Assembly (NCBI RefSeq): GCF_017591665.1
Contig: NZ_JAAKGC010000002.1
Location: 126,487-150,486, forward strand
Reading direction: 5' to 3'
Source of the DNA: Aetokthonos hydrillicola CCALA 1050
GTDB taxonomy: Bacteria > Cyanobacteriota > Cyanobacteriia > Cyanobacteriales > Nostocaceae
Length of the DNA: 24,000 nucleotides
Shown here: piece after piece, positions 3,039 to 18,829 of the stretch
How the letters are laid out: each line of letters begins with the position of its first letter
How positions within the stretch are numbered: the stretch's first letter is position 1
Made by a program: the position numbers and the translations under genes
The notes under the pieces: model-generated
The model's input: only the letters and a program-made list of their open reading frames with translations
What the model was told of the DNA's origin: nothing
The model's database searches: none

Positions 3039-4061
3039 TTGTTGTTAAGCTTTATGACAGAACAGCCAAAACTCGCTGTTGAGGTGCTAGATAGTTTCGG
3101 TCATTTACTAGAAAACCAAAAAAGAAGCACTCCACAGACTAGAAAATTAACTCGCCGACAGTTTATCAAAGGGGTTGGTTTTGCTAGTGCAGGATTGCTA
3201 GGAGTAATAACGCTGCAGCGAGTGTTTCAGGAGAATCTGCAGCAGTTTGAATTTCAGGTAGTGAAGGTGGATGCAACAGGAAAAATTATCAAGAGCAACA
3301 CTAGTAGCGCAAATTTCTTTACTGAAGATTTGGGCAATGGTGTCACTTTGGATATGGTGGAAATTCCTGGGGGTAAGTTTGTTATGGGTTCCCCGTCAAC
3401 AGAAAAGGATAGATCTGATTCTGAACGTCCACAGCACAATGTTACAATTAAACCTTTTTATATAGGCAAGTTTACCATTACCCAACAGCAATATCAGGCA
3501 GTTATGGGGAAAAATCCCTCCAACTTCAAAGGAGAAAAACGACCTGTTGAACAAGTAAGCTGGGATGATGCGATCGCGTTCTGTGATAAACTATCTCAAA
3601 GGACAGGTAAAACCTATCGGCTACCAAGTGAAGCTGAGTGGGAATATGCTTGTCGTGCTCTTACAACTACCCCGTTTTATTTTGGTGAGACAATTACTAC
3701 GGATTTAGCGAATTATTACGGTAGCTCAACTTATGCATCTGAACCAAAAGGCGTTTACCGTCAGCAAACAACCGAAGTAGGAAAATTTCCACCAAACGCT
3801 TGGGGTTTATATGATATGCATGGTAATATATGGGAGTGGTGTCAAGATACCTGGCATGATAGCTATGAAGGTGCGCCGGTTGACGGCACTGCATGGGTGA
3901 GCGATGATAAAAATAATACACTACATCTGCTGCGGGGTGGTGCTTGGAACAACGTTCCGAGAATATGCCGAACAATAGATCGCGATTGGTTCGCGCGCGA
4001 CTACTCGGACAGCAATGTAGGTTTTCGCGTGGTTGCGGTTAGTGCAGCCAGGACTGTTTAG
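3039..4061 (+). CDS. Standalone FGE-sulfatase-domain protein with Tat-like signal/anchor; paralog of the C-terminal module of the 956-aa protein
   Basis: 340-aa ORF. RLPSEAEWEYACR, GLYDMHGNIWEWCQD and LLRGGAW...GFRVV are typical of PF03781/CLec-fold domains. TRRQFIKGVGFASAGLLGV fits the twin-arginine consensus (S/T-R-R-x-F-L-K plus a hydrophobic stretch). The start is either TTG 3039 or ATG 3054, and an in-frame TGA lies at 2970-2972. Confidence 0.8.
   Translation: MLLSFMTEQPKLAVEVLDSFGHLLENQKRSTPQTRKLTRRQFIKGVGFASAGLLGVITLQRVFQENLQQFEFQVVKVDATGKIIKSNTSSANFFTEDLGNGVTLDMVEIPGGKFVMGSPSTEKDRSDSERPQHNVTIKPFYIGKFTITQQQYQAVMGKNPSNFKGEKRPVEQVSWDDAIAFCDKLSQRTGKTYRLPSEAEWEYACRALTTTPFYFGETITTDLANYYGSSTYASEPKGVYRQQTTEVGKFPPNAWGLYDMHGNIWEWCQDTWHDSYEGAPVDGTAWVSDDKNNTLHLLRGGAWNNVPRICRTIDRDWFARDYSDSNVGFRVVAVSAARTV
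3927..4061 (+). other. VR-like hypervariable 3' end of the standalone paralog
   Basis: It corresponds to 10670-10804. In the 24 codons between W and GFR, 14 differ from the other copy, mostly in codon positions 1-2. This copy keeps more AAC/AAT codons (aac aac ... aat). Confidence 0.6.
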
Positions 4062-4184
4062 CACTTTATTAATTCTTCCAAGCGGCTAAACTTCTCTAGT
4101 AAACCTAACATTGTTACTGCTCCAACATTCCTTTAATTTTAACTATGAAGTGATGCACCTATCTTTCTGTTAGGTAAACTTGAC

Positions 4185-4547
4185 GCGATCGCTCCCAACA
4201 TAGATATTCGTGGTAAAATACAGCAAGCTGACCTCAAACGCTCAGCAAAAAGTCTCAATCCTGACGGATGGCGACGAGTTAACAACAGCCCGAATCCTTT
4301 TAAAAGCTTGCAGCGCTACTTGGGAGTAATACCGTTTCTTTATGAAGCTGCATTTATGAACCCCCCGGCTGCGCCGTCCCCCCTTACCAAGGGGGGACTA
4401 CAGGGGGGTAAAGTTATGTGCGTCTTCATATAAAATTGGGAGTAGCACCAGAGCAAGGGGAAAAAGCTGTTTCGGTGATTGGGTTTTGAAGAGAAACAGA
4501 CAGAAGATTGCGGAAAATTGTATGCTCAGCTTGTATTAAGGCTTGAA
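4185..4547. repeat. Left copy of a 198-bp direct repeat (4185-4299 + 4465-4547), interrupted by a 165-bp insertion
   Basis: gcgatcgctcccaacatagatattcgtggt.aaatacagcaagctgacctcaaacg... and ...agctgtttcggtgattgggttttgaa.agaaacagacagaagattgcggaaaa...cttgtattaaggcttgaa recur, near-identical, at 15983-16180. Confidence 0.9.
4329..4435. mobile_element. MITE-like palindromic element (copy A), possibly flanked by a 9-bp duplication TTGGGAGTA
   Basis: Imperfect terminal inverted repeats (tttatgaagctgcat / atgtgcgtcttcata) and a G/C palindromic core (ccccttaccaagggg). ttgggagta occurs at 4320-4328 and 4436-4444. The element is absent from the other copy of the 198-bp repeat. A related element lies at 5583-5688. 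Confidence 0.6.
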
Positions 4548-4570
4548 CGTTAGTAAATTTTCCTATCTTC

Positions 4571-5563
4571 ATGAAACCCGCGAAAAAAATATTAATGTTA
4601 TCAGCAAATCCTAAGAACACAAATCCTTTACGCTTAGGGGAAGAAGCACGGAAAATTCAAGAAGCGTTGAAACTAGCTAAACATCGAGATGAGTTTGAAA
4701 TTGCGACTTCTTGGGCAGTACGAGTAGAAGATTTACGCCGTGCAATGATAGACTATCAACCGAATATCATTCATTTTTCCGGACATGGAGTGGGAGCAGA
4801 GGGTTTGGCATTTGAAGATAATTCTGGGATGACGCAGTTGGTGAGCAGCGAGGCTATAGCAAGTTTATTTGAATTGTTTCGTGGAACAGTTGAGTGTGTC
4901 CTACTTAACGCCTGCTATAGCGAAGTTCAAGCACAAGCAATTCACCAGCACGTTGATCACGTAATTGGGATGAATCAGTCAATTGGGGACGTAGCTGGAA
5001 TTGAATTTACTATTGGCTTTTATGATGCTTTGGGTGCTGGAGAAAGCTATGACTATGCTTTTAGGATGGGGTGTAATGCTATTCAGCTAAAAGCTAGCCA
5101 GGAAAATTCAACACCAGTCATTAAATCTAGACCATCTTCTGTTTCTGTTAAAAAAGCTGTAAAATCCGATGTTATGTCTGAAAAAAAATCACAACAAAAA
5201 TCCAGTGAGGGAATTGTCTTTAACATTAGCGGTGCTAAAATAGGCGGTGGGATACAAGCTGTACAGGGTGATAACAATCTACAAAGCATGACTAACTATG
5301 CAGCTATTGAACAAAAGTTAAATCTTGCAGAAGTTGCAAAAGAAATTCAACAACTTTTGCAAAAAATAGAAAATTCAAATCCTGCCACAACGAGATTAGA
5401 AAAACTAATGATTGTTACTAAAGCTGTTGAACACATTGAAAATAATTCAGCCTTGAAAGCGCGTGTATTAGAATTAATCAACGCAGATAGAAAAGAAGCT
5501 TTAAAAAAAGAAATTAACCACCCGTTAGCAAAGATTGTACTAGAATCTATAGAAGATTTGTAA
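4571..5563 (+). CDS. Caspase/CHAT-like protease-fold protein (predicted effector) with a Ser/Lys-rich linker and helical C-terminus
   Basis: 330-aa ORF. The N-terminal ~170 aa carry the His...Cys arrangement of clan-CD peptidases: NIIHFSGHG (H68/H72), then ~40 residues later VLLNACYS (C115). This is the widespread cyanobacterial ILxLxANP...RL..E.R.I...L N-terminal module. It is the first gene of a co-directional cluster. Confidence 0.6.
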   Translation: MKPAKKILMLSANPKNTNPLRLGEEARKIQEALKLAKHRDEFEIATSWAVRVEDLRRAMIDYQPNIIHFSGHGVGAEGLAFEDNSGMTQLVSSEAIASLFELFRGTVECVLLNACYSEVQAQAIHQHVDHVIGMNQSIGDVAGIEFTIGFYDALGAGESYDYAFRMGCNAIQLKASQENSTPVIKSRPSSVSVKKAVKSDVMSEKKSQQKSSEGIVFNISGAKIGGGIQAVQGDNNLQSMTNYAAIEQKLNLAEVAKEIQQLLQKIENSNPATTRLEKLMIVTKAVEHIENNSALKARVLELINADRKEALKKEINHPLAKIVLESIEDL

Positions 5564-5582
5564 AAAATCAGTGTTTATACCA

Positions 5583-5688
5583 ATTTTCTGTGAAGCTGCA
5601 CATTATTTTTACCCCTCCTAACCTCCCCTTTCCAAGGGGAGGAAAGAAGGCGGTGGGTTTCTTTCTACACGTCTTCACATAAAAATGG
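5583..5688. mobile_element. MITE-like palindromic element (copy B), same family as 4329-4435
   Basis: ataccaattttctgtgaagctgcac...cccctttccaagggg...gtcttcacataaaaatggtat. The termini and core are similar to copy A. It lies in the intergenic space after the protease gene and could also act as a hairpin terminator. Confidence 0.55.
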
Positions 5689-5730
5689 TATTAAGTGATA
5701 ACTGCTAACTGTTGACGAGTGGTGCATTCT

Positions 5731-5758
5731 GACTCCTGACTCCTGACTCCTGACTCCT
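5731..5758. repeat. Heptamer tandem repeat (GACTCCT)x4
   Basis: Read directly from the sequence. The same heptamer forms the arms of the hairpin element at 11092-11310. It is an STRR-like cyanobacterial repeat class. Confidence 0.9.
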
Positions 5759-5820
5759 TTTTATACTATATCTCTCATCAATTATCTTGAGTTTCTAGTA
5801 TCTTTAACGCAAACTGATAA

Positions 5821-6960
5821 ATGAGTAACAATTTACCCCCTGAAGATAATTTACCACTCATTAAAGACTCAAATATTGAATTCCAGGCAAAAAATTCCAC
5901 AATTGATGGTGGAGTAAAAGTTATTCAGGGGAACGACAATATCCAGATTCACCAGGTTGTTGTTGGAAAGGTCACCTTTGAAAGTAGTATTCGGAAGCAT
6001 GTAAAACGACCTCGTTCTGAACAGGAACCTCCCTCTCTGCTGCCATATTTAGTAAATAGAAAAGAACAGGAAGAGGAGTTAGAAAACGCAGTTAAACTGT
6101 TGTTGAAACAAGTCCATCCTCGCCCTCTAGTTTGCATTATTCATGGTAGCGAATTTCAAGGTCATTATCAATTTTTAAAGCGGTTGCAAAAATCCTTTCT
6201 GCCAAGATTTTTAAAATTAGATCCAACCCAGAAGGTACAGGAATACTGTCTCGAGTGGCCGACTGGATTAAAAAATTTAGATCTACTGAAGGATCGGTTA
6301 TGCAAAAATCTAGTAACCAAAGTTCTAGGTCATGATTTTGATTGTCCGGAAGAAATTAATGCTACTTTAAAAGAAATAAATGCAAGCTTCTGCAAATACC
6401 CTAGTCCAATTGTCATTGATACTCATATACGTACTCAAGACTGGCAGCAGCAAGGATTTGAAATATTAAATAAACTGTTGGAGTTTTGGGACAATTGGCC
6501 TGATCTTATTCCAGGACAGAGACTCATAGTCTGTGTATTTATTAAATACACTATCTATCTGCACAAACATACTGAAGAATTTTCGTTTCCACGGATTTTC
6601 AATTGCTTGCCCAGTTTGTACAAGCGGCATTACTATCAAAGTATAAATAAAAAGATTTCAAAAGTACTTAATAAATCAAAAAATAAACATTTTAATCGCT
6701 TATCGTATACTATCTTGTCAGAATTGAAAAATATTAACATAATGCATGTTGAACACTGGGTACGCGATAAAGAAACGAAACAGTTTGTTGGTGAGGAGAA
6801 GACTCAGAAACTGATTAATGACGTAACACTTATGTTTAATCATTGGGGAAAGGACACAATTCCTATGGATGATTTAGCTGATGAGTTAACTCGCCTACTA
6901 AAGTCACTAAAAGTTACTAATTATACTCATGATAAGAAAAAGCCTAATAGGAGCAAATAG
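5821..6960 (+). CDS. Hypothetical protein; possible inactive STAND-like / vWA-MoxR-associated adaptor
   Basis: 379-aa ORF. LPYLVNRKEQEEELENAV...RPLVCIIHGSEFQGHYQFLKRL sits where a STAND NTPase would have its Walker A, but no GxxxxGK[ST] is present. It ends 2 nt before the AAA+ gene, with an AGGAG 10 nt upstream of that start. The family assignment is inference only. Confidence 0.35.
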   Translation: MSNNLPPEDNLPLIKDSNIEFQAKNSTIDGGVKVIQGNDNIQIHQVVVGKVTFESSIRKHVKRPRSEQEPPSLLPYLVNRKEQEEELENAVKLLLKQVHPRPLVCIIHGSEFQGHYQFLKRLQKSFLPRFLKLDPTQKVQEYCLEWPTGLKNLDLLKDRLCKNLVTKVLGHDFDCPEEINATLKEINASFCKYPSPIVIDTHIRTQDWQQQGFEILNKLLEFWDNWPDLIPGQRLIVCVFIKYTIYLHKHTEEFSFPRIFNCLPSLYKRHYYQSINKKISKVLNKSKNKHFNRLSYTILSELKNINIMHVEHWVRDKETKQFVGEEKTQKLINDVTLMFNHWGKDTIPMDDLADELTRLLKSLKVTNYTHDKKKPNRSK

Positions 6961-6962
6961 AT

Positions 6963-7949
6963 ATGAAATTTCCATTCTACAGAGGTGATGGAACTCGACA
7001 GCAGTATGAATCGCCAGCAAAACTACCTATCTCTAGGCGTTCTCTACTACTGAAGCCAGAATATTACATTGCTGATCTAGGACTTAAAGATGCTTGTAAT
7101 GTAGCCCTCTTATTGGGACAACCCCTTCTGCTTACGGGAGAACCCGGAACTGGAAAGACTCAATTTGCCTACAGTCTTGCATGGGAACTTGGTTTCGATC
7201 CACCATTAAAGTTTGAAACTAAGTCTACTAGTACCGCTCGGGATCTTTTCTATACCTATGATGCATTGAAACGTTTCCAAGATGCCCAAAGCGGTGTTTT
7301 ATCAAGCCCCTTGGATTATATCACCTACCAAGCTCTGGGGCTGGCGATTTTACTAACCCGAGATCCGGCTGAGGTTGAGCAAATCTTACCATCAAATTTC
7401 GCACATCCTGGCAAAGTACGCTCTGTTATTTTAATTGATGAAATTGATAAAGCTCCTCGTGACTTCCCAAATGATCTGCTCAATGAACTGGAACACATGT
7501 ATTTTCGTATTCCAGAGTTAGGAAATAAAATAATTGAAACTGATCCAGCACTCCAACCCATTGTAATTATTACCAGCAATACTGAAAAGGATTTGCCAGA
7601 TGCCTTTCTACGGCGTTGCATTTATTATGATATTCCCTTCCCAGAGCATGAGAGACTTGCAGAAATTATTGCCAACCGCCTTGGACTTTATAATGGTAGC
7701 AGCAATCCATTTTTACAAGATGCTCTTGACTTATTTTATCAATTACGTTCCCCTCAAAGTGGTTTAAGGAAAAAACCTGCAACAGCTGAACTATTAGGTT
7801 GGCTCTTGGCTCTAAAAACCGTTGCTGGTGATACACCTAATCCCTTAGATAAATTAGATCTGGTTCAAGCTACCCTCAGTAGCTTAGTCAAAACTTCCGA
7901 AGATCAAGAAAAAGCTAGACAACTTGTAAAGCAATGGATGCTGCAATAG
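6963..7949 (+). CDS. MoxR-like AAA+ ATPase (AAA_5-type)
   Basis: 328-aa ORF with Walker A LLLTGEPGTGKT, Walker B VILIDEIDKA and sensor region IVIITSNTEKDLPDAFLRRC. It overlaps the downstream gene by 16 nt. Confidence 0.8.
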   Translation: MKFPFYRGDGTRQQYESPAKLPISRRSLLLKPEYYIADLGLKDACNVALLLGQPLLLTGEPGTGKTQFAYSLAWELGFDPPLKFETKSTSTARDLFYTYDALKRFQDAQSGVLSSPLDYITYQALGLAILLTRDPAEVEQILPSNFAHPGKVRSVILIDEIDKAPRDFPNDLLNELEHMYFRIPELGNKIIETDPALQPIVIITSNTEKDLPDAFLRRCIYYDIPFPEHERLAEIIANRLGLYNGSSNPFLQDALDLFYQLRSPQSGLRKKPATAELLGWLLALKTVAGDTPNPLDKLDLVQATLSSLVKTSEDQEKARQLVKQWMLQ

Positions 7950-10804
7950 AAATAAATATCCCTGACTGGTTAAATCGCAATGTTCTAACCGATTTTATTG
8001 ATGAACTCAGAGATGCAGGCTATAACATTGGCATTGCTCAGTATATTGCAGCTTATGATTTAATCTTAGCACTAACGGCTCAGGGTGAACCCTTGAATAA
8101 ACCAGAGCGTCTCAAAACTCTGCTTGGACCAATCTTTTGTAGTTCACCAGCTGAGCAGGAAGATTTTCAGCAACGCTTTGACCGTTGGGTTGAGTTGGTT
8201 TGTCAAACTGGTCGCGCAACGGAGGGAGCAGATGTAAAAGCTCAAGCATTATCAGAAGAATTAGGAAAGATCGAAAGGCGTTTGCCTCAGTTAAATAGAA
8301 GACTTATTCTAATTGCTCTAACAGGAATCATTCTACCCTTGTTCTTGGAACAGTCTATAAAAGATGAGAGTACTAGGCCAAAACAACCTTCTGCGAAACA
8401 ACCTTCCGCAAAACAACCTTCTACAACACAACCTTCTACAACACAACCTTCTACAACACAACCTTCTACAACACAACCTTCTACAACATTTGTAACGCCA
8501 CGCAATCGAGACTTTCCACAGGATTGGCAGATATATTTGTTCTCTTTTTTGCTTACTTCTGGTATTATTTTTATAGTGTGGCGTTTATGGTGGTTATGGC
8601 GTGCTCGCCTGTTCTTACAGCGTCATGGAACTACGAAACAGCCTGAGCTATATAAGATTGCTTTCCGTGAATTTGAGCAAAACTTATTCCCTACAATTAT
8701 ATTGATACATGCTGCTCAGAGTTTAAGGTATCGAATCCGTATCCCATCCGATGAACTTGATATTGATAAAACCATTGATGCAACTTTTCGCCAAGGAGGA
8801 TGGCTGACACCAGTATACGGTATTCGTCAAGTTCTTCCCGAGTATCTGTTTCTTATTGATCGTGCTAGCTACTCTGATCATCAGGCTAAATTTATAGAAG
8901 AGATGGTTGAGCGCCTTAAACACAATGGAGTTTTTATCACAAGCTATTTCTTTGATGATGATCCGCGAATTTGCTTTCCTAGTGATGGTATAAGCTCTCC
9001 ACAGAAACTTAACGAAATAGCAGCAAAATTTGCTCAACATCGCCTTGTTATCGTCTCAGATATAGAGAAGCTATTTAGTTCTCAAACTGGTGAGCTAGAA
9101 TCTTGGGTGAGTCAAATGACAAGCTGGGAGCATAGAGCTATTTTAACCCCAAAACCTTTCGAAAGTTGGGGATATCAAGAGTTAGAACTCGCACGCCAGT
9201 TTATTGTTTTACCCGCAACTCCTCAAGGGGTGCGATCGCTTAGCCAAGTTTTACATCACGGATCTGCAACCTACGTTCTCTCTGAAAAAGACCAAAATCC
9301 TCTACCGGAAACGTTGCGTACTCAACCCCATTACTGGATTGAGCGCAACCCGCCAAAACCTGAGCAGATCAATACAATGTTAAACTCATTGCAGGAATAT
9401 CTCGGCGAAGACGGTTTTTACTGGCTCAGCGCTTGTGCTGTTTTTCCGGAGTTACATTGGAACATTACAATCTATCTGGGTAATGCTCTCAAAACAGAGG
9501 ACAGTCAAAGTCTTTTGGAGGTTTGTTCACTAACTAATCTGGCTCGCTTACCCTGGTTTCGTTATGGTTACATACCAGATTGGTTGCGTTCTCGTCTCAT
9601 TGCAACCCTTACATACGAACAGAAGCATACAATCCGCACTGCACTTCAAGATTTACTCATCACTGCTGTTCAGGGATCTGTAGGTAGACAGCAATTAGAA
9701 GTTGCACAAAAGCATCACAGTTTTCTACCTAAACTTGCTAATTCGATACTTTCCCTGTTATCTAGAAGAGCGACTGAAGGTAGTCCATTACGAGACTACT
9801 TGTTTTTAAGCTTTATGACGGGACAGCCAAAACTCGCTGTTGAGGTGCTAGATACTTTCAGTCATTTACTACAAAAGCCACAAAGAATCACTCGGCGACA
9901 GTTTATCAAATGGGCTGGTTTTGTTAGTGCAGGATTCGTAGGAGCAATAGCGCTGCAGCAACTGTTTCAGGAGAATCTGCAGCAGTTTGAATTTCCGGTA
10001 GTGAAGGTGGATGCAACAGGAAAAATTACCAACCGCACGAATAAACAAGCAAATTTCTTTACTGAAGATTTGGGTAATGGTGTGACTTTAGATATGGTAG
10101 AAATTCCTGGGGGTAAGTTTGTTATGGGTTCCCCGTCAACAGAAAAGGATAGATCTGATTCTGAAGGTCCACAGCACAATGTGACGATTAAACGTTTTTT
10201 CATGGGCAAGTTTACCATTACCCAGCAGCAATATCAGGCAGTTATGGGGAAAAATCCCTCGAACTTCAAAGGAGAAAAACGACCTGTTGAAGGAGTAAGT
10301 TGGGATGATGCGATCGCTTTCTGTGCTAAACTATCTCAAAGGACAGGTAAAACCTATCGGCTACCAAGTGAAGCTGAGTGGGAATATGCTTGTCGTGGTT
10401 GGACTACTACGCCGTTTTATTTTGGTGAGACGATTACAACGGATTTAGCAAATTATAACGGTGACTATACTTATGCATCTGAACCAAAAGGCGTTTACCG
10501 TCAGCAAACAACCGAAGTAGGAAAATTTCCACCAAACGCTTGCGGTTTATATGATATGCATGGTAATATATGGGAGTGGTGTCAAGATACCTGGCATGAT
10601 AACTACCAAGGTGCGCCAGATGACGGCACTGCATGGGTGAGCGATAATAATGTTAATAATTCTCGACGTCTGCTGCGTGGCGGTTCGTGGGTCAACGATC
10701 CGAGGTTCTGTCGTTCGGCGTTTCGCGTCAGGCTCGCGCGCGCCTTCTCGAACGACCTTGTGGGTTTTCGCGTGGTCGTGGTTGGTGCAGCCAGGACTCA
10801 TTAG
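7934..10804 (+). CDS. Membrane protein: CoxE-like N-domain, TM hairpin with PST repeat, vWA-like domain (degenerate MIDAS), Tat-like anchor, FGE-sulfatase/CLec domain carrying a DGR variable region
   Basis: 956-aa ORF. The N-terminus FIDELRDAGYNIG...EDFQQRFDRWV and the middle ELDIDKTIDATFRQGG...EYLFLIDRASYSD...VFITSYFFDDD are collinear with CoxE-type vWA proteins (PF05762) as I remember them. Hydrophobic segments are LILIALTGIILPLFL, IYLFSFLLTSGIIFIVWRLWWLW and WAGFVSAGFVGAIAL (the last preceded by TRRQFIK). The C-terminus has RLPSEAEWEYACR, GLYDMHGNIWEWCQD and LLRGGSW...GFRVV. Confidence 0.75.
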   Translation: MDAAIEINIPDWLNRNVLTDFIDELRDAGYNIGIAQYIAAYDLILALTAQGEPLNKPERLKTLLGPIFCSSPAEQEDFQQRFDRWVELVCQTGRATEGADVKAQALSEELGKIERRLPQLNRRLILIALTGIILPLFLEQSIKDESTRPKQPSAKQPSAKQPSTTQPSTTQPSTTQPSTTQPSTTFVTPRNRDFPQDWQIYLFSFLLTSGIIFIVWRLWWLWRARLFLQRHGTTKQPELYKIAFREFEQNLFPTIILIHAAQSLRYRIRIPSDELDIDKTIDATFRQGGWLTPVYGIRQVLPEYLFLIDRASYSDHQAKFIEEMVERLKHNGVFITSYFFDDDPRICFPSDGISSPQKLNEIAAKFAQHRLVIVSDIEKLFSSQTGELESWVSQMTSWEHRAILTPKPFESWGYQELELARQFIVLPATPQGVRSLSQVLHHGSATYVLSEKDQNPLPETLRTQPHYWIERNPPKPEQINTMLNSLQEYLGEDGFYWLSACAVFPELHWNITIYLGNALKTEDSQSLLEVCSLTNLARLPWFRYGYIPDWLRSRLIATLTYEQKHTIRTALQDLLITAVQGSVGRQQLEVAQKHHSFLPKLANSILSLLSRRATEGSPLRDYLFLSFMTGQPKLAVEVLDTFSHLLQKPQRITRRQFIKWAGFVSAGFVGAIALQQLFQENLQQFEFPVVKVDATGKITNRTNKQANFFTEDLGNGVTLDMVEIPGGKFVMGSPSTEKDRSDSEGPQHNVTIKRFFMGKFTITQQQYQAVMGKNPSNFKGEKRPVEGVSWDDAIAFCAKLSQRTGKTYRLPSEAEWEYACRGWTTTPFYFGETITTDLANYNGDYTYASEPKGVYRQQTTEVGKFPPNACGLYDMHGNIWEWCQDTWHDNYQGAPDDGTAWVSDNNVNNSRRLLRGGSWVNDPRFCRSAFRVRLARAFSNDLVGFRVVVVGAARTH
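8381..8485 (+). repeat. In-frame 15-nt tandem repeat, 7 units, encoding (KQPSA)2-KQPST-(TQPST)4
   Basis: Units aaacaaccttctgcg / aaacaaccttccgca / aaacaaccttctaca / acacaaccttctaca x4, read directly. It lies between the first two hydrophobic segments of the 956-aa protein. Confidence 0.95.
10670..10804 (+). other. DGR variable region (VR) at the 3' end of the 956-aa gene
   Basis: Its 5' 18 nt (ctgctgcgtggcggttcg) are repeated exactly at 12427-12444 just after the RT gene. The segment is the only strongly divergent part between two otherwise ~85-90% identical paralogs. It occupies the canonical LLRGGSW...GFRV position of CLec-fold DGR targets, and avd and RT are immediately downstream. Confidence 0.7.
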
Positions 10805-10855
10805 CCCTTTACTCTCTTGCACTTTTGCACTCTACCCTCTATTATTTACCTTTAC

Positions 10856-10882
10856 TCCGCCGCAGGCGGATCGATTTTTTTT
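10856..10882 (+). terminator. Hairpin plus T-run downstream of VR (intrinsic terminator; possibly also the DGR target-site hairpin)
   Basis: tccgcc-gca-ggcgga (6-bp GC-rich stem, 3-nt loop) at 10856-10870, followed by tcga and tttttttt (10875-10882). Confidence 0.6.
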
Positions 10883-10894
10883 GAGTTTTTTAAG

Positions 10895-11091
10895 ATGAGC
10901 GATTTGCCTATTATACAGAAAACCTACGATTTGATCAAGTGGTATGTCCCAATTTTAAACCGCGTGCCGAGAGAACATAAATTTTTATTGGCAAACCGGA
11001 TGATTACAGGACTGTACGATATTCGGGATGCTCTGATCGTAGCACGGTATTCCACCAAAGACAAGTTAGCTCAGTTAGAATCTTTGAAGAA
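10895..11091 (+). pseudogene. avd: DGR accessory variability determinant (Avd), 3'-truncated
   Basis: MSDLPIIQKTYDLIKWYVPILNRVPREHKFLLANRMITGLYDIRDALIVARYSTKDKLAQLESL matches the N-terminal half of cyanobacterial Avd proteins as I recall them. From 11092 the frame runs into a GAATTCAGGAGTCA-repeat hairpin element and ends at 11173. No second half of avd follows before the RT start. ATG 10895 is preferred over the listed 10817 start, which lies upstream of the terminator. Confidence 0.6.
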
Positions 11092-11310
11092 GAATTCAGG
11101 AGTCAGAATTCAGGAGTCAGAACAAGAGCGTAAGGGATTCGATTCAAACCTGCCACTAATTGCAGACCGCTAAATCTTCTCCTATCGGAGACGCTACGCG
11201 TAGCTTGCTTCCCCAAAGGGGTACGATTTAGCCGGGGTCTTAAGCCCCTTAACTCATCTGCCAGTCGTACAGAATTCATGCGCTCATTCTGACTCCTGAT
11301 TCCTGAGTTC
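11092..11310. mobile_element. ORF-less hairpin element with inverted heptamer-repeat arms, replacing the 3' half of avd
   Basis: The left arm is (gaattcaggagtca)x2 at 11092-11119. The right arm ttctgactcctgattcctgagttc at 11287-11310 is its imperfect reverse complement. The interior contains further palindromes (gctaaatc...gatttagc). Confidence 0.55.
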
Positions 11311-11329
11311 TATTTAATAAGACAACAGC

Positions 11330-12391
11330 ATGAAACGACATGGTAATCTGTGGAAGGACGTTATCGCGTTTGAGAATTTACTAACAGCTAGCCGGAAAGC
11401 ACAACGGGGCAAACGTTTTCGAGACAATGTTCTGTCGTTCAATTACAATCTAGAGAAAGAGCTATTTCAACTACAAGCAGAATTACAGTCAAAAACATAC
11501 AATCCCGGTTTATATACAACATTTCGGATTTTTGAACCAAAGCCACGTCTGATTTCTGCTGCTCCTTATCGCGATAGAGTAGTACATCACGCTCTTTGCA
11601 ACATTATTGCTCCTATTTTTGAAAGAACATTCATTCATGATTCCTACGCTAACCGCGTTGGTTTTGGCAGTCACCGCGCGTTACGTCGTTTTACAAGCTT
11701 TGCGCGCTCAAGTCGCTACATTCTGCAATGCGATATTCGCAAATATTTTCCCAGCATCGACCATGAAATTTTAAGGTCACTGGTACGCCGTAAAATCAAA
11801 TGCCGTGATACACTCTGGCTAATCGACAATATTATTGATGCAAGTAACCCTCAAGAACCAGTTATCGATTACTTCCCTGGTGATGATTTACTTATGCCTT
11901 TGGAACGACGAAGAGGCTTGCCAATTGGTAATTTAACCAGCCAATTCTTTGCGAATGTATACCTTAACAGTTTAGATCATTTTGTTAAAGAACAAATCAA
12001 AGCGACCAAATATGTTCGCTACGTTGATGATTTTGCTTTGTTTTCAGATGACCGAGAATTTTTAGAAAACGCAAGACGAGAAATCGAAGAACACCTTGCT
12101 AGTCTGAGGCTCAAGCTTCATCCTGTTAAGAGCCAATTATTTCAGACAAAACACGGTGCCAATTTTGTTGGTTTTCGCATCTTACCAAATCGGATTCGAG
12201 TAAGGAACGATAATCTGCGTCTCGCAAGGCGAAGATTACGAAAGATGGTTTTAGACTATAGAGAGGGCAAAATTACCCAACAGGAAGTATCTCAGTCAAT
12301 TCGGAGTTGGATTGGTCACTTAAAACATGGAGATACTTGGCGATTGCGCCAGGAAATATTTAGTTCTCTCGTGTTTTCAAAAAAACCCTAA
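11330..12391 (+). CDS. DGR-type reverse transcriptase
   Basis: 353-aa intact ORF beginning MKRHGNLW. It has the RT motifs [26 protein letters not shown] (the [I/L]GxxxSQ motif typical of DGR RTs) and the catalytic [11 protein letters not shown]. Confidence 0.85.
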
Positions 12392-12426
12392 TATGTTATC
12401 CTCAACTGTGGGGTAGGCAATACCGA

Positions 12427-12444
12427 CTGCTGCGTGGCGGTTCG
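12427..12444 (+). other. 5' stub of the DGR template repeat (TR)
   Basis: An 18-nt exact match to the start of VR (10670-10687), located 36 nt after the RT stop. The match stops at the edge of the inserted cassette (12445). A tgg that would continue the match follows the cassette at 12881-12883. Confidence 0.55.
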
Positions 12445-12880
12445 AATTCAGTTATCAGTTATCAGTTATCAGTTATCAGTCGATTATGAATAGTTTAGTT
12501 TATGAGAAAGCGTATAAATTTGCCATTCGCATTGTAAACGCATACAAATATCTTTCTGAAGAGAAGAAAGAATATATTTTATCAAAGCAATTAATTAGAA
12601 GCGGAACCTCAATTGGAGCTAATATCGCTGAAGCTAATGGAGCAATATCTCAAGCAGATTTTTGCTGCAAAATTTCTATTGCTTATAAAGAATGCTTGGA
12701 AACGAAATATTGGCTTTCTTTGTTAAAAGATACAGCATACATTGAGCAGAAAGCATTTGATAGCATTTATGAAGATGCAGATGAAATAGGAAAAATTCTA
12801 TTTTCAATCCTTAAAAAAACAAAAATTAAACAACAATCAATAGAATGATAACTGATAACTGATAACTGATAACTGATAAG
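12445..12880. mobile_element. IVS-like cassette: four-helix-bundle gene flanked by inverted heptamer arrays, inserted in the TR
   Basis: (cagttat)x4 at 12449-12476 and (gataact)x4 at 12847-12874 are reverse complements of each other. The interior is visibly more AT-rich than the flanks. Like the element in avd, it starts with gaattcag. Confidence 0.65.
12486..12848 (+). CDS. Four helix bundle protein (23S rRNA intervening-sequence protein / Avd superfamily)
   Basis: 120-aa ORF. LIRSGTSIGANIAEANGAISQADFCCKISIAYKECLETKYWLSLL is the hallmark of the TIGR02436/PF05635 family. Confidence 0.8.
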   Translation: MNSLVYEKAYKFAIRIVNAYKYLSEEKKEYILSKQLIRSGTSIGANIAEANGAISQADFCCKISIAYKECLETKYWLSLLKDTAYIEQKAFDSIYEDADEIGKILFSILKKTKIKQQSIE

Positions 12881-12976
12881 TGGGGTTGGAAACAATCTTC
12901 GAAAATAAAACTGAGTCGGATAGCTTAGTAGGCTGCAAAGTCGAACGGTTTGTCTGACTTATTGAAGTTTATAGGT

Positions 12977-13124
12977 CAATATGGTTCAGTTAAAGCCTAA
13001 AGTTGTGTAGTTGTGTAGTTGTGTAGGTTGGGCTGAGGGACGAAGACCAACATTTTTAGAATTTCGTTGGGCAACACGAGCGTTCAACCCAACCTACCAC
13101 TAAGCCTTAACTGAACCGTATTGG
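12977..13124. mobile_element. MITE-like nested palindromic element, including an (agttgtgt)x3 octamer repeat
   Basis: Outer inverted repeats caatatggttcagttaaagcctaaag (12977-13002) and ctaagccttaactgaaccgtattg (13100-13123). Inner inverted repeats gtaggttgggctgagg / gttcaacccaacctac. Confidence 0.6.
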
Positions 13125-13218
13125 GTTATAGATCTGCAATCAGTCAACCAAAAAGTTTTTCTCCAAAGAGCAATGCCTGCGGCGGGCTGCGCCTACGCTA
13201 ATTTGTTTGTAGCCTATG

Positions 13219-13443
13219 TTACTGTATTTCCCAATCTTCAATCAGCAAGTTATTAACACGCTTAAATTCTCTAGTATTATGGGTAATGAGAGTTAAATTA
13301 TTTGTCAGCGCGATCGCAGCAATTTGTAAGTCATAAGCTCCGATGGGAGTGCCTAATGCTTCTAGCCCAGATCGAATCGTTCCAAATGTCATACTTACTA
13401 GATCATCAAACGGTAGTGATGTGAATTGGGCTAAAAATTTTTG
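13219..13443 (-). pseudogene. VapC-type PIN toxin, C-terminal fragment only
   Basis: The minus-strand frame reads QKFLAQFTSLPFDDLVSMTFGTIRSGLEALGTPIGAYDLQIAAIALTNNLTLITHNTREFKRVNNLLIEDWEIQ*. It has no N-terminal PIN half and no start, and an in-frame stop lies at 13444-13446. Confidence 0.65.
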
Positions 13444-13454
13444 CTATATAAAAC

Positions 13455-13604
13455 CTATTTTAACTGAGATAAAATAGAAATTGAGAATATGAGAACGCCA
13501 ATATCCTGAGCTAGATCTAATGCTTGACGTGGCTTGCTTTGACTAAACAAAAATGCACTAATCACCACATTAGTATCAAAAACAAACCGTTGTTTATTCG
13601 TCAT
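13455..13604 (-). pseudogene. PIN-domain toxin, N-terminal 49 codons only (truncated)
   Basis: MTNKQRFVFDTNVVISAFLFSQSKPRQALDLAQDIGVLIFSISILSQLK*. The FDTNV acidic motif is typical of PIN. The start overlaps the upstream antitoxin stop (ATGACGAATAA). It appears to belong to a different PIN subfamily from the fragment at 13219-13443. Confidence 0.55.
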
Positions 13605-13842
13605 CGTTTAAAATCGATTCTAAGATTTCAGGCGTTAATCCTCGCTGTTGTGCTTCAAAGCTTGCTTTATCCATCGTGTTTCTCAGGCGTGAAATTGCCT
13701 CAGGTTGAGGTATTGTAAATGAAGACTGCATAATTGCTGCAATTTTGATCTGCAATTGTTCGCGCTCTTCTTCTGTAGCATCGCGGTATGCTTGTGCTAC
13801 CTCAGAGGGAACTTTAATAGTAATTTCTTCTTTAATAGTCAT
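13594..13842 (-). CDS. Putative type II antitoxin (partner of the truncated PIN gene)
   Basis: 82-aa ORF, small and acidic. Its stop overlaps the PIN start codon region, and its position is upstream of the toxin. The assignment rests on context, not on a recognised domain. Confidence 0.45.
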   Translation of the reverse strand: MTIKEEITIKVPSEVAQAYRDATEEEREQLQIKIAAIMQSSFTIPQPEAISRLRNTMDKASFEAQQRGLTPEILESILNDDE

Positions 13843-13937
13843 GGGCTATTGGCGTAAATAATTTTGTGTGAGTACTTGTAAGCTGTTGCGCATTTAATTT
13901 GTATATGGGACGCGGGCAAGATGCCTGCAATACATTG

Positions 13938-14528
13938 TCATAACTTTTCACTTTCATGTTGTTCAGGAAGTGCAATACGTCCATGATAGTCATGATAACG
14001 ATGCGAAAAGTGTTCTAAATATGGACATTCAAGAACTGTGCGTCGTCTAGCAGTATGCTGACTGATTTGGTGATACAAAAATCCGGCATCTATTGCAAAA
14101 ACTTTTTTGAAATCTACTGTTAATTCTGGTAACCCTTCCTGACTTAATTCGCAATTTGAAGGTACTTTTTCAAAGAAATGAAATTGCTGATGACGGTTAG
14201 ATTTCACCAAGTTCCAATCAGATGAGTTTATCCGCAGAGTTTTATCATAACGAATATCTTGCGCTGTATAAACTTCACAAAGAATGACTGAATTTAACAA
14301 TTTATATATTTTATCTTGATTTTGCCTAGCTGTATAATCCCAATCTAAATCGCAATCTTGCGTCACAATAATTGCGTAAGGATGAATTATCGGTCGAAAC
14401 TGGGTTTTATCTAGCTCTGGAGATGATTCGTCAGGAACAGGTCTAAACTGTATTACTCCCGTTAAAATTTCTCCCTGCCTAAGAGCCTCTTTTTCATCCG
14501 AGGCTCGATAAATCAAACTTTTGGGCAT
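13938..14528 (-). CDS. Hypothetical protein (third gene of an AT-rich operon)
   Basis: 196-aa ORF, 8 nt after the upstream gene. It is Cys/His/Asp-rich (HPYAIIVTQDCDLDWDY, ECPYLEHFSHRYHDYHGR). I recognise no family. Confidence 0.5.
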   Translation of the reverse strand: MPKSLIYRASDEKEALRQGEILTGVIQFRPVPDESSPELDKTQFRPIIHPYAIIVTQDCDLDWDYTARQNQDKIYKLLNSVILCEVYTAQDIRYDKTLRINSSDWNLVKSNRHQQFHFFEKVPSNCELSQEGLPELTVDFKKVFAIDAGFLYHQISQHTARRRTVLECPYLEHFSHRYHDYHGRIALPEQHESEKL

Positions 14529-14536
14529 GATGAAAG

Positions 14537-14944
14537 CTATTCAAAATTAAGAATTAAAGGTGGTCTGACTTCTGTTGGTAACACGCTATTAGTAATAACT
14601 TCTAAATTTTGGGGTAAGCTAGTTTGTTGCAAATCAGAGGTACTATCCTTATAGTATTCCACCATGCTTTCAAGGGCTTCCGATGCTTCTTGTAAGCCTT
14701 CTGTTTTAGAATTCCCAAAAAGAATACTAATTAAAGTTAAACATTTGATTAATAGAACGCTGTTTTGATGTACTTGGTTTGTCAATTCGTCAGCGAAAGG
14801 TGATTCTATCGAAAATGTAATTTTTAAATTGGATATATTAGGCGATAAAGTTTGCCAATTATGTGTTTGGGCAGGGGTTGATATTAGTTCGTACCTTTGC
14901 CCGATTATATGATTACTTTGAGTTACACCAGTTATTCTTTGCAT
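14537..14944 (-). CDS. Hypothetical protein (second gene of an AT-rich operon)
   Basis: 135-aa ORF, 4 nt after the upstream gene. I recognise no family. Confidence 0.45.
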   Translation of the reverse strand: MQRITGVTQSNHIIGQRYELISTPAQTHNWQTLSPNISNLKITFSIESPFADELTNQVHQNSVLLIKCLTLISILFGNSKTEGLQEASEALESMVEYYKDSTSDLQQTSLPQNLEVITNSVLPTEVRPPLILNFE

Positions 14945-14948
14945 ATAT

Positions 14949-15734
14949 CTATATAGTTTGAGGTCGCATTGTGTTGTGTAATTCTTCTGTGATACTCCAG
15001 CGAAAAAGATTTCTGGCTACACGATTTGCTTTGTCGAATGTATTCCAGACATTTTCACCTTTTTCTATCTTTTGTTCTGTAAAAAAATCAGCATCTAACA
15101 AATAAGATGTTTCATCAAGATTTTTTTCTATATCTCTGACTTGAACAAGTCCATGATTAAAATTGACCTGACCAAATTCGGTTCGTAATTGTAAATTTTT
15201 AAGTAAATTTATTATTGATTCTTCTAGCTCTGGAGTATATAGCTCATACGCGATATGTTTAGGGATTAATTCAATCCATTTTTTGTTGGTAATGTTCAGT
15301 TTTGACCTAATAATTAAATCCCGATATCTTAAACCTATTCTTGAATAAAAAGATGGATTATATATTTGCTCAAAAATTTCTACAGCATATTTGAATCTTC
15401 CAATGAATTTTTCATATCTTTCATATTTATTAGTCACAAGTGTGATAGAGTTTTTATCTACAGAAATCTGCCAACTTAAATCTTCTGATTTAAATTGATA
15501 CATTAAATCACTAGCAATACTTGAATTAAATTGGGTTAAAACATTTGACAACTCAACTGGTACTTGCAAGTTTTTAGAAGCTTCAAAAATAGGGTATTCA
15601 AATCTTAACCTATCTTGAAAATCTACAGGTTCTTGACTTGTAATTTTCAAAATAGTTGGAAATCTAATCTGAGCAATCACCTCGATTAGAGGATTATACT
15701 CATAAATAACTCTTTCATAATCTGGGAGCTTCAT
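14949..15734 (-). CDS. Hypothetical protein, possibly TIGR04255 family (first gene of an AT-rich operon)
   Basis: 261-aa ORF. The N-terminus YEYNPLIEVIAQIRFPTILKI...FQDRLRFEYP resembles the conserved start of the uncharacterised TIGR04255 family as I recall it. Confidence 0.5.
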   Translation of the reverse strand: MKLPDYERVIYEYNPLIEVIAQIRFPTILKITSQEPVDFQDRLRFEYPIFEASKNLQVPVELSNVLTQFNSSIASDLMYQFKSEDLSWQISVDKNSITLVTNKYERYEKFIGRFKYAVEIFEQIYNPSFYSRIGLRYRDLIIRSKLNITNKKWIELIPKHIAYELYTPELEESIINLLKNLQLRTEFGQVNFNHGLVQVRDIEKNLDETSYLLDADFFTEQKIEKGENVWNTFDKANRVARNLFRWSITEELHNTMRPQTI

Positions 15735-15982
15735 CTTTAAAAAATGCTATGACCGAGTGAGATAACCTTTCATCTTATAGATTAGCCTAATTCCGAGCAT
15801 TAGTCAGTAATGTTTCCCACACTTAAAAATAATAGCAGGGAATCTTATTGCTGACTATAGGGAAAACTTATGTCCCTGCCGCATCTCCCAACCGGAGCCA
15901 CAAGGACTATATACTAATGTGGGTTTGAACCACATAGGCAATTCTCGCCCCAAAGTGAAGTTTCCCACCAGACTTATTAGGT

Positions 15983-16180
15983 GCGATCGCTCCCAACATA
16001 GATATTCGTGGTCAAATACAGCAAGCTGACCTCAAACGAGCAGCAAAAAGTCTCAATCGTGACTGATGGGGACGAGTTAACAACAGCATAAATCCTTAGC
16101 TGTTTCGGTGATTGGGTTTTGAACAGAAACAGACAGAAGATTGCGGAAAATAGTCTAGCCAGCTTGTATTAAGGCTTGAA
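15983..16180. repeat. Right copy of the 198-bp direct repeat
   Basis: Near-identical to 4185-4299 + 4465-4547. It lies just downstream of the mutS stop. In one frame it ends a start-less open frame ...FPPDLLGAIAPNIDIRGQIQQADLKRAAKSLNRD*. Confidence 0.9.
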
Positions 16181-16252
16181 AGTCAAAGGACTTGAAAGGT
16201 TTGTTGTTGTGCTTGAGTGCGCTAAAGCGCAACTACGAACGAACGAGTACAA

Positions 16253-18829
16253 CTAATCTAAACTTTGTAAGCCGATCGCTATCTTACTATGTTTCTCAAT
16301 TTGACCCATGACTTGTTTTGCTCGTTGAATCACTACCGCAGGTAAACCGGCTAAACGTCCTGCTTCAATTCCATAGGATTTATCAGCACCACCTGGTTGA
16401 ACGGAGTGCAAAAAGATAATCTGGTCTGGTAACTCTTTCACTGTTACTTGATAGTTAGCGACATTTGGTAAAATTGACGCTAACTCATTCAACTCATGGT
16501 AGTGCGTTGCAAAAATTGTTCGCGCCCGAATTTCTGTTGCAATATACTCTGCTACAGCCCAAGCAATTGAAAGTCCATCAAATGTTGCTGTTCCGCGCCC
16601 AATTTCATCTAATAACACCAAGGATCTTGAAGTTGCATGGTTGAGAATATTTGCTGTCTCATTCATCTCCACCATAAATGTTGATTGACCAGTCGCCAAG
16701 TCATCCACTGCACCGACACGAGTGAAAATGCGATCGCACACCCCCAACTTAGCAGACTTAGCAGGCACAAAACTACCAATCTGTGCCATCAACTGAATCA
16801 ATCCCACCTGTCTTAAATAACAACTCTTACCACTTGCATTAGGTCCAGTCAAGATAATTAAATCAGGTGATACCTCATATAAGTTCTCCTCTACCAACCC
16901 TAGCTGAGTAGAATTTGGCACAAAAAACCCTGCTGGTAAAGACTTTTCTACTACCGGATGACGCCCATCGACTATCCTAATTTCTCGTCCTGGTATCATT
17001 TCCGGACGACAGTAACCTTGATAAACCGCCAATTCTGCCAAACCAGCCAACACGTCAGCCGCAGCAACTGCACGAGAAATATTGCGAATGCTCTCCGCGT
17101 GTTTTCCTACCTCTTCGCGCAACACTGCAAAAATTTCATACTCCAACTTATTTAAATCATCCCGCGCTGTGAGAATTCGGGCTTCTCTTTCCTTCAATTC
17201 AGGTGTGATGTAGCGCTCCTCGTTGGTCAATGTTTGCTTGCGGATGTAATTAGAAGGTACAGAATCAGCTTTTGCACGAGAAATACTGATATAATACCCG
17301 AAGGTTTTGTTAAACCCTACTTTTAAATTGGGTATTGCCGTCCTTGCTCTCTCATCAACTTCTAAATTAGCAATCCACTGTTGATCTTCTTCTACAGTAA
17401 CGCGCCTCTGATCTAACTGAGGATTAATTCCAGGGCGAATCAAACCACCTTCTGTTAAATGTATTGGTGGTGACTCCACAATATGAGCTTGTAATTTTTG
17501 TGCTAAATCTTGCAGCAGAGGTGGTGCTTTTTGTAGAGCCTTTAAAAACGGAGACTCAGCCTCACTGACTAAGTGAGATAATTCTGGTAGACGAGATAAC
17601 GAATCCGCCAATGCGACTAAATCTTTTGCATTAGCAGTACCAGAACCAGCACGTCCCGCCAAGCGTTCCAAGTCATAAATTTGCTTTAACAGTTTCCGCA
17701 ATTCTTGGCGGAGGTTAGTGTTTTCTACGAGTTCTTGGATCGTGTCTTGTCGAGCGCTAATACCTTTTATATCAAGTAGAGGTTGCAATAACCAGCGCCG
17801 TAAAGCGCGACTCCCCATTGTTGTACAGGTGTTATCTAACGCCCAAAGCAGAGAACCATGAAAACTACCATCACGAACTGTTTGGGTAATTTCTAAGTTA
17901 CGGCGGGTTTGATGATCAACAATTAAGAAGTCACTGAGGGTGTAGGTGCGGAGTAGTTGTAGAGGAACGGTGTTTTCTTTTTGTGTATCTTCTATGTATT
18001 CTAAAAGCCCACCAGCAGCGCGAACTGCTAACGGTAGGTGATCGCAACCGAGCCCTTCAAGCGATCGCACTTTAAACGTTTGCAATAATCTTGCTCTTGC
18101 TTCACCTGCGCTGAACCGATTTTGCGATCTTAAAGAATAACAGAACGATGGTGGTAAACAATCTGGTAAATGTTCTGATTTTTCACCCGGACGTAGTAAA
18201 GTTCCCAAATCAGGAGCATTGGTAGGAACCAGTACCTCTGAAGGTTGCAACCGCATTAATTCTTGGGTGAGATGTTCTAAAGGAGTTCCTTGAGTTGTGA
18301 GAAATTCACCAGTAGAGATATCTGCATAAGCTAAACCCCAATGATCTCCCGCAATAACCACAGCAGCTAGATAGTTATTATGACTCCCCTTGAGCATTCC
18401 TTCTTCTAGCAAAGTACCAGGAGTGAGGATGCGGGTTACTTCACGTCGCACCAAACCAACAGCGTCAGCAGCGTCTTCCACTTGATCGCAAATCACCACT
18501 GCATAGCCTTTTTCTACCAACTGGGTAGTATAACGCTCCCATGCATGATGTGGTACACCTGTCATGCATACCCTACCGACTTCTCCCCCGTGTTTACTTG
18601 TTAAAACTAATTCCAGTTCTCTGGAGATAGTAACCGCGTCTTGAAAAAAAGTTTCAAAAAAATCTCCTACCCGATACAGCAGCAGTGCGTGAGGATACTT
18701 ATCCTTCATTTCCACGTAGTGCTGATACATTTTACTGAGCCTACTGCGATCCACTAGTCGATGATCAGCATGAGGTGCAGTCGAGTTATTAGGTTCGTTT
18801 GTTTGGGACGCAGAGTCAGAAGCCGTCAT
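16253..18829 (-). CDS. mutS: DNA mismatch repair protein MutS
   Basis: 858-aa ORF with the N-terminal mismatch-binding region [14 protein letters not shown], Walker [15 protein letters not shown], Walker [10 protein letters not shown], and THYHEL. Confidence 0.95.

Follow-up and report, generated by a model that had tools for sequence, protein, structure and literature searches.

A Pair of Direct Repeats Beside mutS in Aetokthonos hydrillicola CCALA 1050: Probable Copies of a Composite Pseudogene Scar in a Defense Locus

Introduction

In the genome of the filamentous cyanobacterium Aetokthonos hydrillicola CCALA 1050, two direct repeats, here designated R1 and R2, bracket ~11.4 kb of accessory genes next to the core gene mutS, which raises the question of whether they mark the ends of an integrated island or have some other origin. 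The locus was analyzed in a stretch of 24,000 nt (contig NZ_JAAKGC010000002.1, positions 126,487–150,486 of the forward strand), referred to as the window, in whose coordinates all features are given. Contigs of this genome are labelled with C numbers, the window lying on C158, and the comparison genomes with G numbers. A sequence-only reading of the window had taken the repeats for a duplicated attachment sequence of an integrated island, or for partners through which the segment could loop out by homologous recombination. Tracing of the sources of the repeat leads to a different answer: R1 and R2 are probably two copies of a composite pseudogene scar, which would have arisen by intrachromosomal duplication in a rearrangement-prone defense locus and would now be essentially inert.

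Structure and Copy Number of the Repeat Pair

Repeat search and blastn place R1 at positions 4185–4299 and 4465–4550 and R2 at 15983–16183, in the same orientation. The two copies agree at 185 of 201 bases, with 16 mismatches and a 165-nt insert in R1 as the sole gap. The blastn identity is 92.2% for 4185–4299 against 15983–16097 and 91.9% for 4465–4550 against 16098–16183, a similarity far beyond chance. The near-identical direct repeats of the sequence-only reading are thus real, and the unit it described also holds, with the right ends moved from 4547 and 16180 to 4550 and 16183, so that 201 bases are aligned. The sequences just outside R1 and R2 are dissimilar; for neither flank pair does the Smith-Waterman score reach the shuffle mean, which rules out longer hidden homology past the repeat edges. 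Only two full copies of the unit, R1 and R2, are present in the whole 9.02-Mb, 457-contig genome, besides which it has three partial paralogous gene matches. This copy number rules out a miniature inverted-repeat transposable element (MITE) or another high-copy dispersed element, the outcome which the sequence-only reading had itself named as incompatible with its proposal.

Origin of the Two Parts of the Repeat

The R unit is a chimera of two dead-gene pieces, an internal fragment of a TPR-CHAT gene (part A) and the 3' end of a gene of the int205 family, encoding a small tyrosine recombinase (part B). The two parts match different loci of the genome: TPR-CHAT genes on contig C402 and int205 tails on contigs C451 and C199, respectively.

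Part A of R1 (4185–4299) comprises an octamer of the highly iterated palindrome HIP1 (4185–4192), the TPR-CHAT fragment and ~15 nt of filler. Unit positions ~4–100 are 79–84% identical to an inner stretch of two paralogous TPR+CHAT genes of C402, coding for proteins of 1153 and 1196 aa, and the match is in frame (APNIDIRGQIQQADLKRAAKSLN against VPNLEIPAQIQQAEIKQAARSFN). The source stretch lies ~215 codons before the end of the TPR-CHAT gene, the homologues of part A in other genomes are likewise located inside TPR-CHAT genes, and part A carries stops. Part B (unit positions 116–201; 4465–4550 in R1) consists of the last eight codons of the recombinase, AVSVIGF*, and 62 nt of conserved spacer after the stop codon; in R1 it is followed by the native CHAT gene. 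The corresponding parts of R2 are located at 15983–16097 (part A) and 16098–16183 (part B), and all of these features are on the plus strand. The suggestion that the repeat is a duplicated 3' end of a lost gene was therefore right as regards remnants of lost genes. The frame on which it was based (APNIDIRG.IQQADLKR), however, is an internal TPR-CHAT piece, and the 3' end that is present belongs to the small integrase.

Parts A and B were not found joined in any of 388 other Nostocaceae species genomes, where each occurs only separately. Exact-pattern scans for the A/B junction and for part A likewise returned nothing from metagenome contigs or species-representative genomes; Logan contigs 100% identical to the window represent the same strain. 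On these comparisons the joined A|B unit appears to be private to this genome.

R1 Is in Native Context and R2 Has New Junctions

Five Nostocaceae genomes of other genera (G390, G007, G090, G092, and G348) share a common gene order: int205, a conserved spacer of ~85 nt, CHAT, iSTAND, AAA ATPase and a large fourth gene. Their CHAT gene is orthologous to the one at 4571–5563 of the window, and the whole array from int205 to the fourth gene, forming one cassette in four other genera of the family, has 81–87% nucleotide identity to the window. The homology runs unbroken across the right edge of R1 (4550) into the CHAT start codon (4571). On the opposite side, the left flank of R1 aligns to the TPR-CHAT genes of G092, G390, G093, and G348 for 13–14 nt past the repeat edge. 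This leftward continuation of the TPR-CHAT relic (4172–4184, plus strand; alignments start at 4172–4176) lies outside the repeat and is present at R1 only. In a manual count on the alignment, the 14-nt left flank agrees with the TPR-CHAT gene of C402 at 11 of 14 positions for R1 vs. 5 of 14 for R2. The conserved int205–spacer–CHAT order in the four other genera thus points to R1 as the in-place relic of the cassette's own integrase, continuous with native sequence on both sides.

R2, by the same comparison, seems to be a secondary, relic copy, since it alone has novel junctions, both on the left and on the right. Its left junction coincides exactly with the HIP1 octamer GCGATCGC at 15983, the counterpart of the octamer at 4185 in R1. 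On the right, homology to the native spacer–CHAT arrangement ends at ~16181–16183, and a dispersed palindromic element of 69 nt (16184–16252) takes up exactly the space from R2 to the stop codon of mutS (16253). This element has 82 BLAST matches in the genome, with family matches beginning at element position 1–2, and a weak fold (z −0.9). The core gene mutS (16253–18829, minus strand) codes for all five MutS domains as recognized by Pfam, and its product has 77–87% amino acid identity to full-length or near-full-length orthologues in other genera. The right copy is thus located beside the 3' side of mutS, as had been described, but it does not abut the gene directly.

Duplication of an attachment sequence predicts a hybrid junction at both ends. 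Because R1 is native on both sides and only R2 has novel junctions, the interpretation of the repeats as the attachment sequence of an integrated island is not supported, and the pair looks like a real but ordinary rearrangement scar.

The Integrase Relic and the int205 Family

An intact int205 paralogue is encoded elsewhere in the genome (C199:13693–14310). Its open reading frame (ORF) of 205 aa, or 183 aa from the first Met, matches PF00589 (E 5e-23) and the catalytic halves of XerA, XerC, and XerD, and contains HSFRRT and LQRY motifs that correspond to the R..HxxR..Y signature of tyrosine recombinases. Proteins of this family (183–205 aa) consist of the catalytic domain only. Other copies in the genome are frameshifted (C451:~49865–50411) or more distant (C275:4049–4708 and C37:34–297).

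R1 retains more of the integrase than R2. The left copy had been described as hit by a MITE, which is correct, but the MITE does not make up the whole 165-nt insert. The ~20 related copies of the MITE family in the genome align to insert positions 27/30–140 only, delimiting a MITE proper of ~113 nt (~4327–4439), which has 29 genome matches, is bordered by the imperfect duplication TTGGGAGTAATACC / TTGGGAGTAGCACC and is inserted inside the integrase relic. The remaining 52 of the 165 nt are mostly integrase codons that R2 lacks. They comprise 4300–4326, outside the MITE-family matches, with 8 nt of filler followed by codons LQRYLG.. aligned to the LQRYLEV codons of intact int205, and 4440–4464, with codons ..PEQGEK aligned to the PEQRKK codons of int205 genes; both segments are on the plus strand and specific to R1. 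The LQRYLGV..PEQGEK codons are contiguous with the AVSVIGF* tail, the frame across the MITE being LQRYLGV(I/A)PEQGEKAVSVIGF* vs. LQRYLEVTPEQRKKAVSVIGF* in the intact gene. Because R1 keeps ~21 integrase codons, with the MITE within them, while R2 keeps 8, R2 would bear an additional internal deletion, of ~52 nt if the MITE came later or of 165 nt if it came earlier.

The sequence-only reading saw no integrase inside the putative island; these codons show that one was once present and has decayed to the relics described. A functional integrase is absent from the interval, with no other PF00589 match among its listed ORFs. The stop-to-stop ORFs of 12850–13950 include no integrase- or transposase-like frame, and no transposase relics were found at the locus.

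The int205 family was detected in 48 of 120 Nostocaceae genomes, often in multiple copies and often on small replicons. Its genes are located directly upstream of, and on the same strand as, varied conflict genes. In A. hydrillicola the downstream cargo is CHAT-TRADD-N-pentapeptide-NTP-transferase on C199, EAD1-NACHT on C37 and a dynamin-like pair on C451, and in G390, G007, and G090 it is the CHAT-iSTAND-AAA cassette. The occurrence of a small integrase directly before such cassettes in several genera may merit a separate look. A text search of PMC7159879, PMC8195603, and PMC10907252 revealed no mention of an integrase or recombinase.

Proposed Origin of the Scar

The integrase of the cassette has been reduced by deletion to ~21 terminal codons, which are now joined to an inner piece of the neighboring TPR-CHAT gene; this fusion, still at its original position, is R1. 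A later intrachromosomal event would have copied this scar stretch 11.8 kb downstream, giving R2. Most likely, an illegitimate (unequal) exchange at the HIP1 octamer would have generated a tandem duplication of a ~11.8-kb unit (4185–15982), the second copy of which would then have been lost downstream of position ~201, perhaps via the dispersed palindromic element now at 16184. The remaining relic would have decayed, R2 losing a further ~52–165 nt internally and the copies diverging by 8%. Alternatively, an ectopic templated patch laid down during break repair could have led to the same end state.

HIP1 has been linked to site-specific recombination, and low-frequency illegitimate recombination at HIP1 has been noted (reviewed by Elhai, 2015; PMC4390886). 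HIP1 octamers are found in the window at 792, 3570, 4185, 10310, and 15983, and the density in the genome is one per 1.8 kb. Two of ~6 duplication edges at this locus lie within a few bases of HIP1, which is unlikely by chance (rough estimate <1e-3). As in HIP1-associated recombination (PMC4390886), the rearrangement junction lies exactly at GCGATCGC; the published cases, however, concern plasmid recombination and low-frequency excision between cloned HIP1 sites, whereas the association is here positional only and involves two breakpoints in one locus.

Several points weigh against this scenario. The order of events is deduced from a single genome, a tandem duplication would have to involve two or more events with unobserved intermediates, and the leftward extension of homology that distinguishes R1 from R2 is short. 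In addition, the substitutions polarized by outgroups form a mosaic, with five derived changes in R1 and one in R2 in part A, and one in R1 and five in R2 in part B. Such a pattern would fit a crossover of fast- and slow-evolving copies, but it is statistically weak (Fisher estimate ~0.08, and weaker if adjacent changes represent one event). The part B half of the mosaic could result from constraint on the spacer of R1 in its capacity as 5' region of the CHAT operon; the pattern as a whole may reflect chance, this constraint, or an old crossover between unequal copies.

Alternative Explanations

One alternative, in line with the looping-out option of the sequence-only reading, is a Campbell-type origin, in which a circle with one R and the interval from the CHAT gene to the three-gene operon described below recombined into a resident R relic beside mutS, the event being reversible by loop-out. 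Direct repeats around accessory genes fit this geometry, and changes derived in part A of R1 and part B of R2 are those expected if a decayed resident copy and a conserved incoming one had undergone one crossover, although the statistic behind them is weak. Both partners, however, must have carried the same one-off A|integrase fusion and hence have had a recent shared origin in the lineage, so that the model becomes nearly equal to intrachromosomal duplication. Moreover, the interior is assembled, as a mosaic, from modules with separate distributions, pieces of the cassette are found outside the bracket as well, and the reversal should be rare, all of which makes this origin unlikely. Looping-out between R1 and R2 by homologous recombination is formally possible but looks inefficient and is expected to be rare, because identity between the copies is only 92%, a 165-nt insert interrupts R1, and the longest usable stretches of perfect identity measure 30, 27, 26, and 25 nt. 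Runs of ~25–30 nt are at the lower limit of efficient RecA-dependent processing, and mismatch repair disfavors diverged partners.

Site-specific recombination would leave R1 and R2 as attachment sites: the unit would hold the recombination site of int205, and the intact paralogue on C199 could excise the interval in trans. Such an enzyme is indeed encoded, R carries the integrase tail together with the conserved spacer, and the spacer has been cut short twice, independently, at points ~15 nt or less apart (position ~186 in C451 and ~199 in R2). Nevertheless, at the other int205 loci the sequence diverges immediately beyond the stop codon and the spacer is kept only where CHAT follows, which excludes it as a general int205 site, and no conserved inverted-repeat core was seen. 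The repeat itself, at 201 bp and 8% divergence, has its left edge in an unrelated pseudogene fragment at HIP1. The same genes are also present without flanking repeats at the genus level, a finding that the sequence-only reading regarded as contrary to its proposal: G390, G007, and G090 have the int-CHAT-iSTAND-AAA-fourth-gene cassette, and in the two of these relatives that were scanned, G007 and G090, no repeat flanks it. Taken together, these data render the attachment-site explanation very unlikely. Neither a tRNA nor a tmRNA gene that could serve as a target is present in the window. In the search for an empty site, gene order downstream of mutS proved not to be conserved among the 12 best relatives, all of which belong to other genera with MutS ≤87% identical. 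An invertible switch for the small recombinase was rejected, as no conserved inverted repeats surround int and its spacer in G390, G007, or on C199. An excision element of the heterocyst type was rejected too: the flanks are the 3' region of a gene with an FGE domain and the 3' flank of mutS, with no split ORF and no intact recombinase.

A bolder version would make int205 a previously unremarked, catalytic-domain-only recombinase family that mobilizes or shuffles conflict cassettes in filamentous cyanobacteria and by which R1 and R2 could still be recombined in trans by a paralogue. This proposal is highly improbable; if it were true, the whole cluster of defense genes beside mutS, with its associated diversity-generating retroelement (DGR), could be excised or lost as one unit.

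Finally, R could be a functional element kept in two copies, for instance a promoter or 5' untranslated region module, or a small RNA. Despite being non-coding, part B of R1 is ~82% conserved across genera, and it has fewer derived changes in R1 than in R2, suggesting a role as the 5' region of the CHAT operon. On the other hand, an Rfam search with the repeat unit, which had been proposed as a check, gave no match at the gathering threshold, and fold z-scores of 0.03 to −1.11 indicate no structured RNA or riboswitch. No promoter- or terminator-like site exceeds shuffle expectation. Part A is a pseudogene fragment with stops, and part B of R2 is decaying and followed only by the dispersed repeat and the antisense strand of mutS. 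A retained function for both copies is highly improbable, and duplication of a pseudogene scar within the chromosome is preferred.

Gene Content of the Bracketed Interval

Pfam and PADLOC assignments of the ORFs confirm that the bracketed genes are accessory. The left part is a conflict-system cassette (4571–10804, plus strand; PADLOC chat) encoding a CHAT protein (4571–5563), an iSTAND protein (5821–6960; PF19995), an AAA ATPase (6963–7949; AAA_5/AAA) and a protein of 956 aa (7934–10804). The C-terminus of the latter is an FGE-sulfatase domain, and its N-terminal 600 aa have no Pfam vWA match even at E ≤ 1. Homology of the cassette to G090, G390, and G007 ends inside the 956-aa gene, at 9871–9884; homology of this gene to its orthologues stops at ~9884, just before an internal TRRQFIK/Tat-like motif. 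The FGE module, which is the DGR target, thus seems to be an addition, by fusion, to an older fourth gene. The fourth gene of G007 ends differently, with a repeat-rich C-terminus made of 102-nt tandem repeats.

The cassette is followed by parts of a DGR (10817–12848, plus strand): a bAvd-like ORF (10817–11173; a weak match, under the Pfam cutoff), a reverse transcriptase (11330–12391), a stub of the template repeat (12423–12444) and an IVP-family ORF (12486–12848). The match to the variable repeat (VR) after the reverse transcriptase is limited to ~22 nt (12423–12444), and no VR-like sequence follows the 436-bp inverted-repeat cassette. The template repeat therefore looks truncated, and the DGR is probably inactive. 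Further downstream are a broken PIN-domain (VapC-like) toxin gene and an upstream 82-aa ORF (13219–13845, minus strand), recognized among stop-to-stop ORFs. The PIN matches fall on two separate fragments, while the 82-aa product matches no Pfam family and is a putative antitoxin by position only.

A three-gene operon (13938–15734, minus strand), coding for a 261-aa protein of the TIGR04255 family (NCBIfam) and proteins of 135 and 196 aa, completes the interval. The segment 13945–15909 has nucleotide identities of 89% in G390, 84% in G078, and 81% in G162, and the operon is a conserved portable module. The cassette (to 9884) and this operon occur separately in different genomes. The interval as a whole is, by these distributions, a mosaic of separately distributed modules and not a single insert bounded by R1 and R2, as the island proposal had assumed. 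The presence of cassette fragments outside the bracket, at 2975–4068 and 787–1167, likewise speaks against one island.

Cassette Fragments Outside the Bracket

The first of these fragments, F1 (2975–4068, plus strand), duplicates the 3' portion of the 956-aa gene (9736–10811) with 86.9% identity; its counterpart within that gene is designated F2. The first 149 nt of F1 are homologous to the non-FGE part of the fourth gene of relatives, which shows that F1 was copied from the fusion gene and rules out F1 as an ancestral stand-alone target of which F2 would be the copy. Outside the VR, F1 and F2 diverge by ~8.5% (synonymous divergence pS 0.125), and R1 and R2 by 8%. This similarity is compatible with a single episode of local duplication. 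A single tandem duplication yielding both F1 and R2 is ruled out, as the 116-nt stretch 4069–4184 is continuous with part A.

The other fragment, F0 (787–1167, plus strand), is an older truncated pseudogene fragment of the FGE module that abuts the start of mscS. It is 80–82% identical to 3565–3917 and 10305–10661, and its tblastn match, which contains an in-frame stop, is confined to aa 173–289. The HIP1 octamer at 792 is 5 nt past the left edge of F0, and no protein-level homology extends upstream of that edge.

Comparison with Known Systems

Like attL-attR islands of the tyrosine-integrase type, the locus has direct repeats bracketing ~11.4 kb of accessory defense genes beside a core gene, and an integrase gene formerly located at the left end next to the repeat. 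The differences are that the integrase is a relic of 21 codons, the repeat joins pieces of two pseudogenes in a 201-bp chimera, novel junctions are confined to one copy, no 3' end of a target gene is restored, and the contents do not travel together. The nifD, fdxN, and hupL elements of heterocyst-forming cyanobacteria (excised by XisA, XisF, and XisC) interrupt a gene that is restored on excision, have identical repeats of 5–16 bp and encode an intact large recombinase. They occur in the same bacterial family and resemble the locus in being segments bounded by direct repeats with a recombinase gene at one border, but none of the three properties, gene restoration, short identical repeats, and an intact large recombinase, holds here.

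Parallels are provided by the decay of DGR and conflict loci through duplication, recombination, and MITE activity in another multicellular bacterium (Doré et al., 2024; PMC10907252). In both cases modules of target genes have been duplicated within the genome, partial copies are present, MITEs have inserted and DGR components are truncated. In the window, in contrast, transposase relics are lacking, two breakpoints are at HIP1 and the duplicated scrap includes an integrase tail. The cassette itself resembles the described iSTAND-type ternary conflict systems with DGR-diversified FGS/FGE sensors (Kaur et al., 2020, PMC7159879; 2021, PMC8195603) in its CHAT effector, iSTAND protein, MoxR-like AAA ATPase, fourth protein ending in an FGE/FGS domain, and neighboring avd-like ORF and reverse transcriptase. 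These systems include a vWA component, for which the fourth protein described above has no Pfam match; here and in the four other genera a small recombinase gene directly precedes the cassette, whereas a text search of the two papers revealed no integrase or recombinase discussed.

The repeat pair itself is unsurprising. The value of the analysis is chiefly corrective, in that an "island with att repeats" becomes an ordinary scar once the sources of the repeat are traced. It also provides a worked example of how local duplication, deletion, and MITE insertion remodel defense loci in filamentous cyanobacteria, and, with two breakpoints at a single locus, adds positional evidence for the ability of HIP1 octamers to act as junctions of illegitimate recombination.

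Surroundings of mutS

On the other side of mutS, upstream of the gene, an AAA_21/DUF4276 pair (18881–20661) matches HEC-01A/B, a candidate system in PADLOC (E 1e-183 and 1e-82, respectively), and mutS therefore sits between defense loci on both sides. The neighborhood is a defense-rich, rearranged region rather than a discrete insert. In a genome of another genus (G064:C3:3646595–3666500), genes for FGE-domain and AAA proteins, with 40–60% amino acid identity to those of the window, are convergent to mutS, no more than ~125 nt from its 3' end. Systems of this type may recurrently occupy the 3' flank of mutS.

Seven other relatives (G020, G062, G011, G024, G030, G012, and G021) show a peculiarity of mutS itself: MutS matches there in two pieces (~1–650 and ~653–858) that are 60–220 nt apart within one open frame, which suggests an in-frame insertion in the MutS of these genomes.

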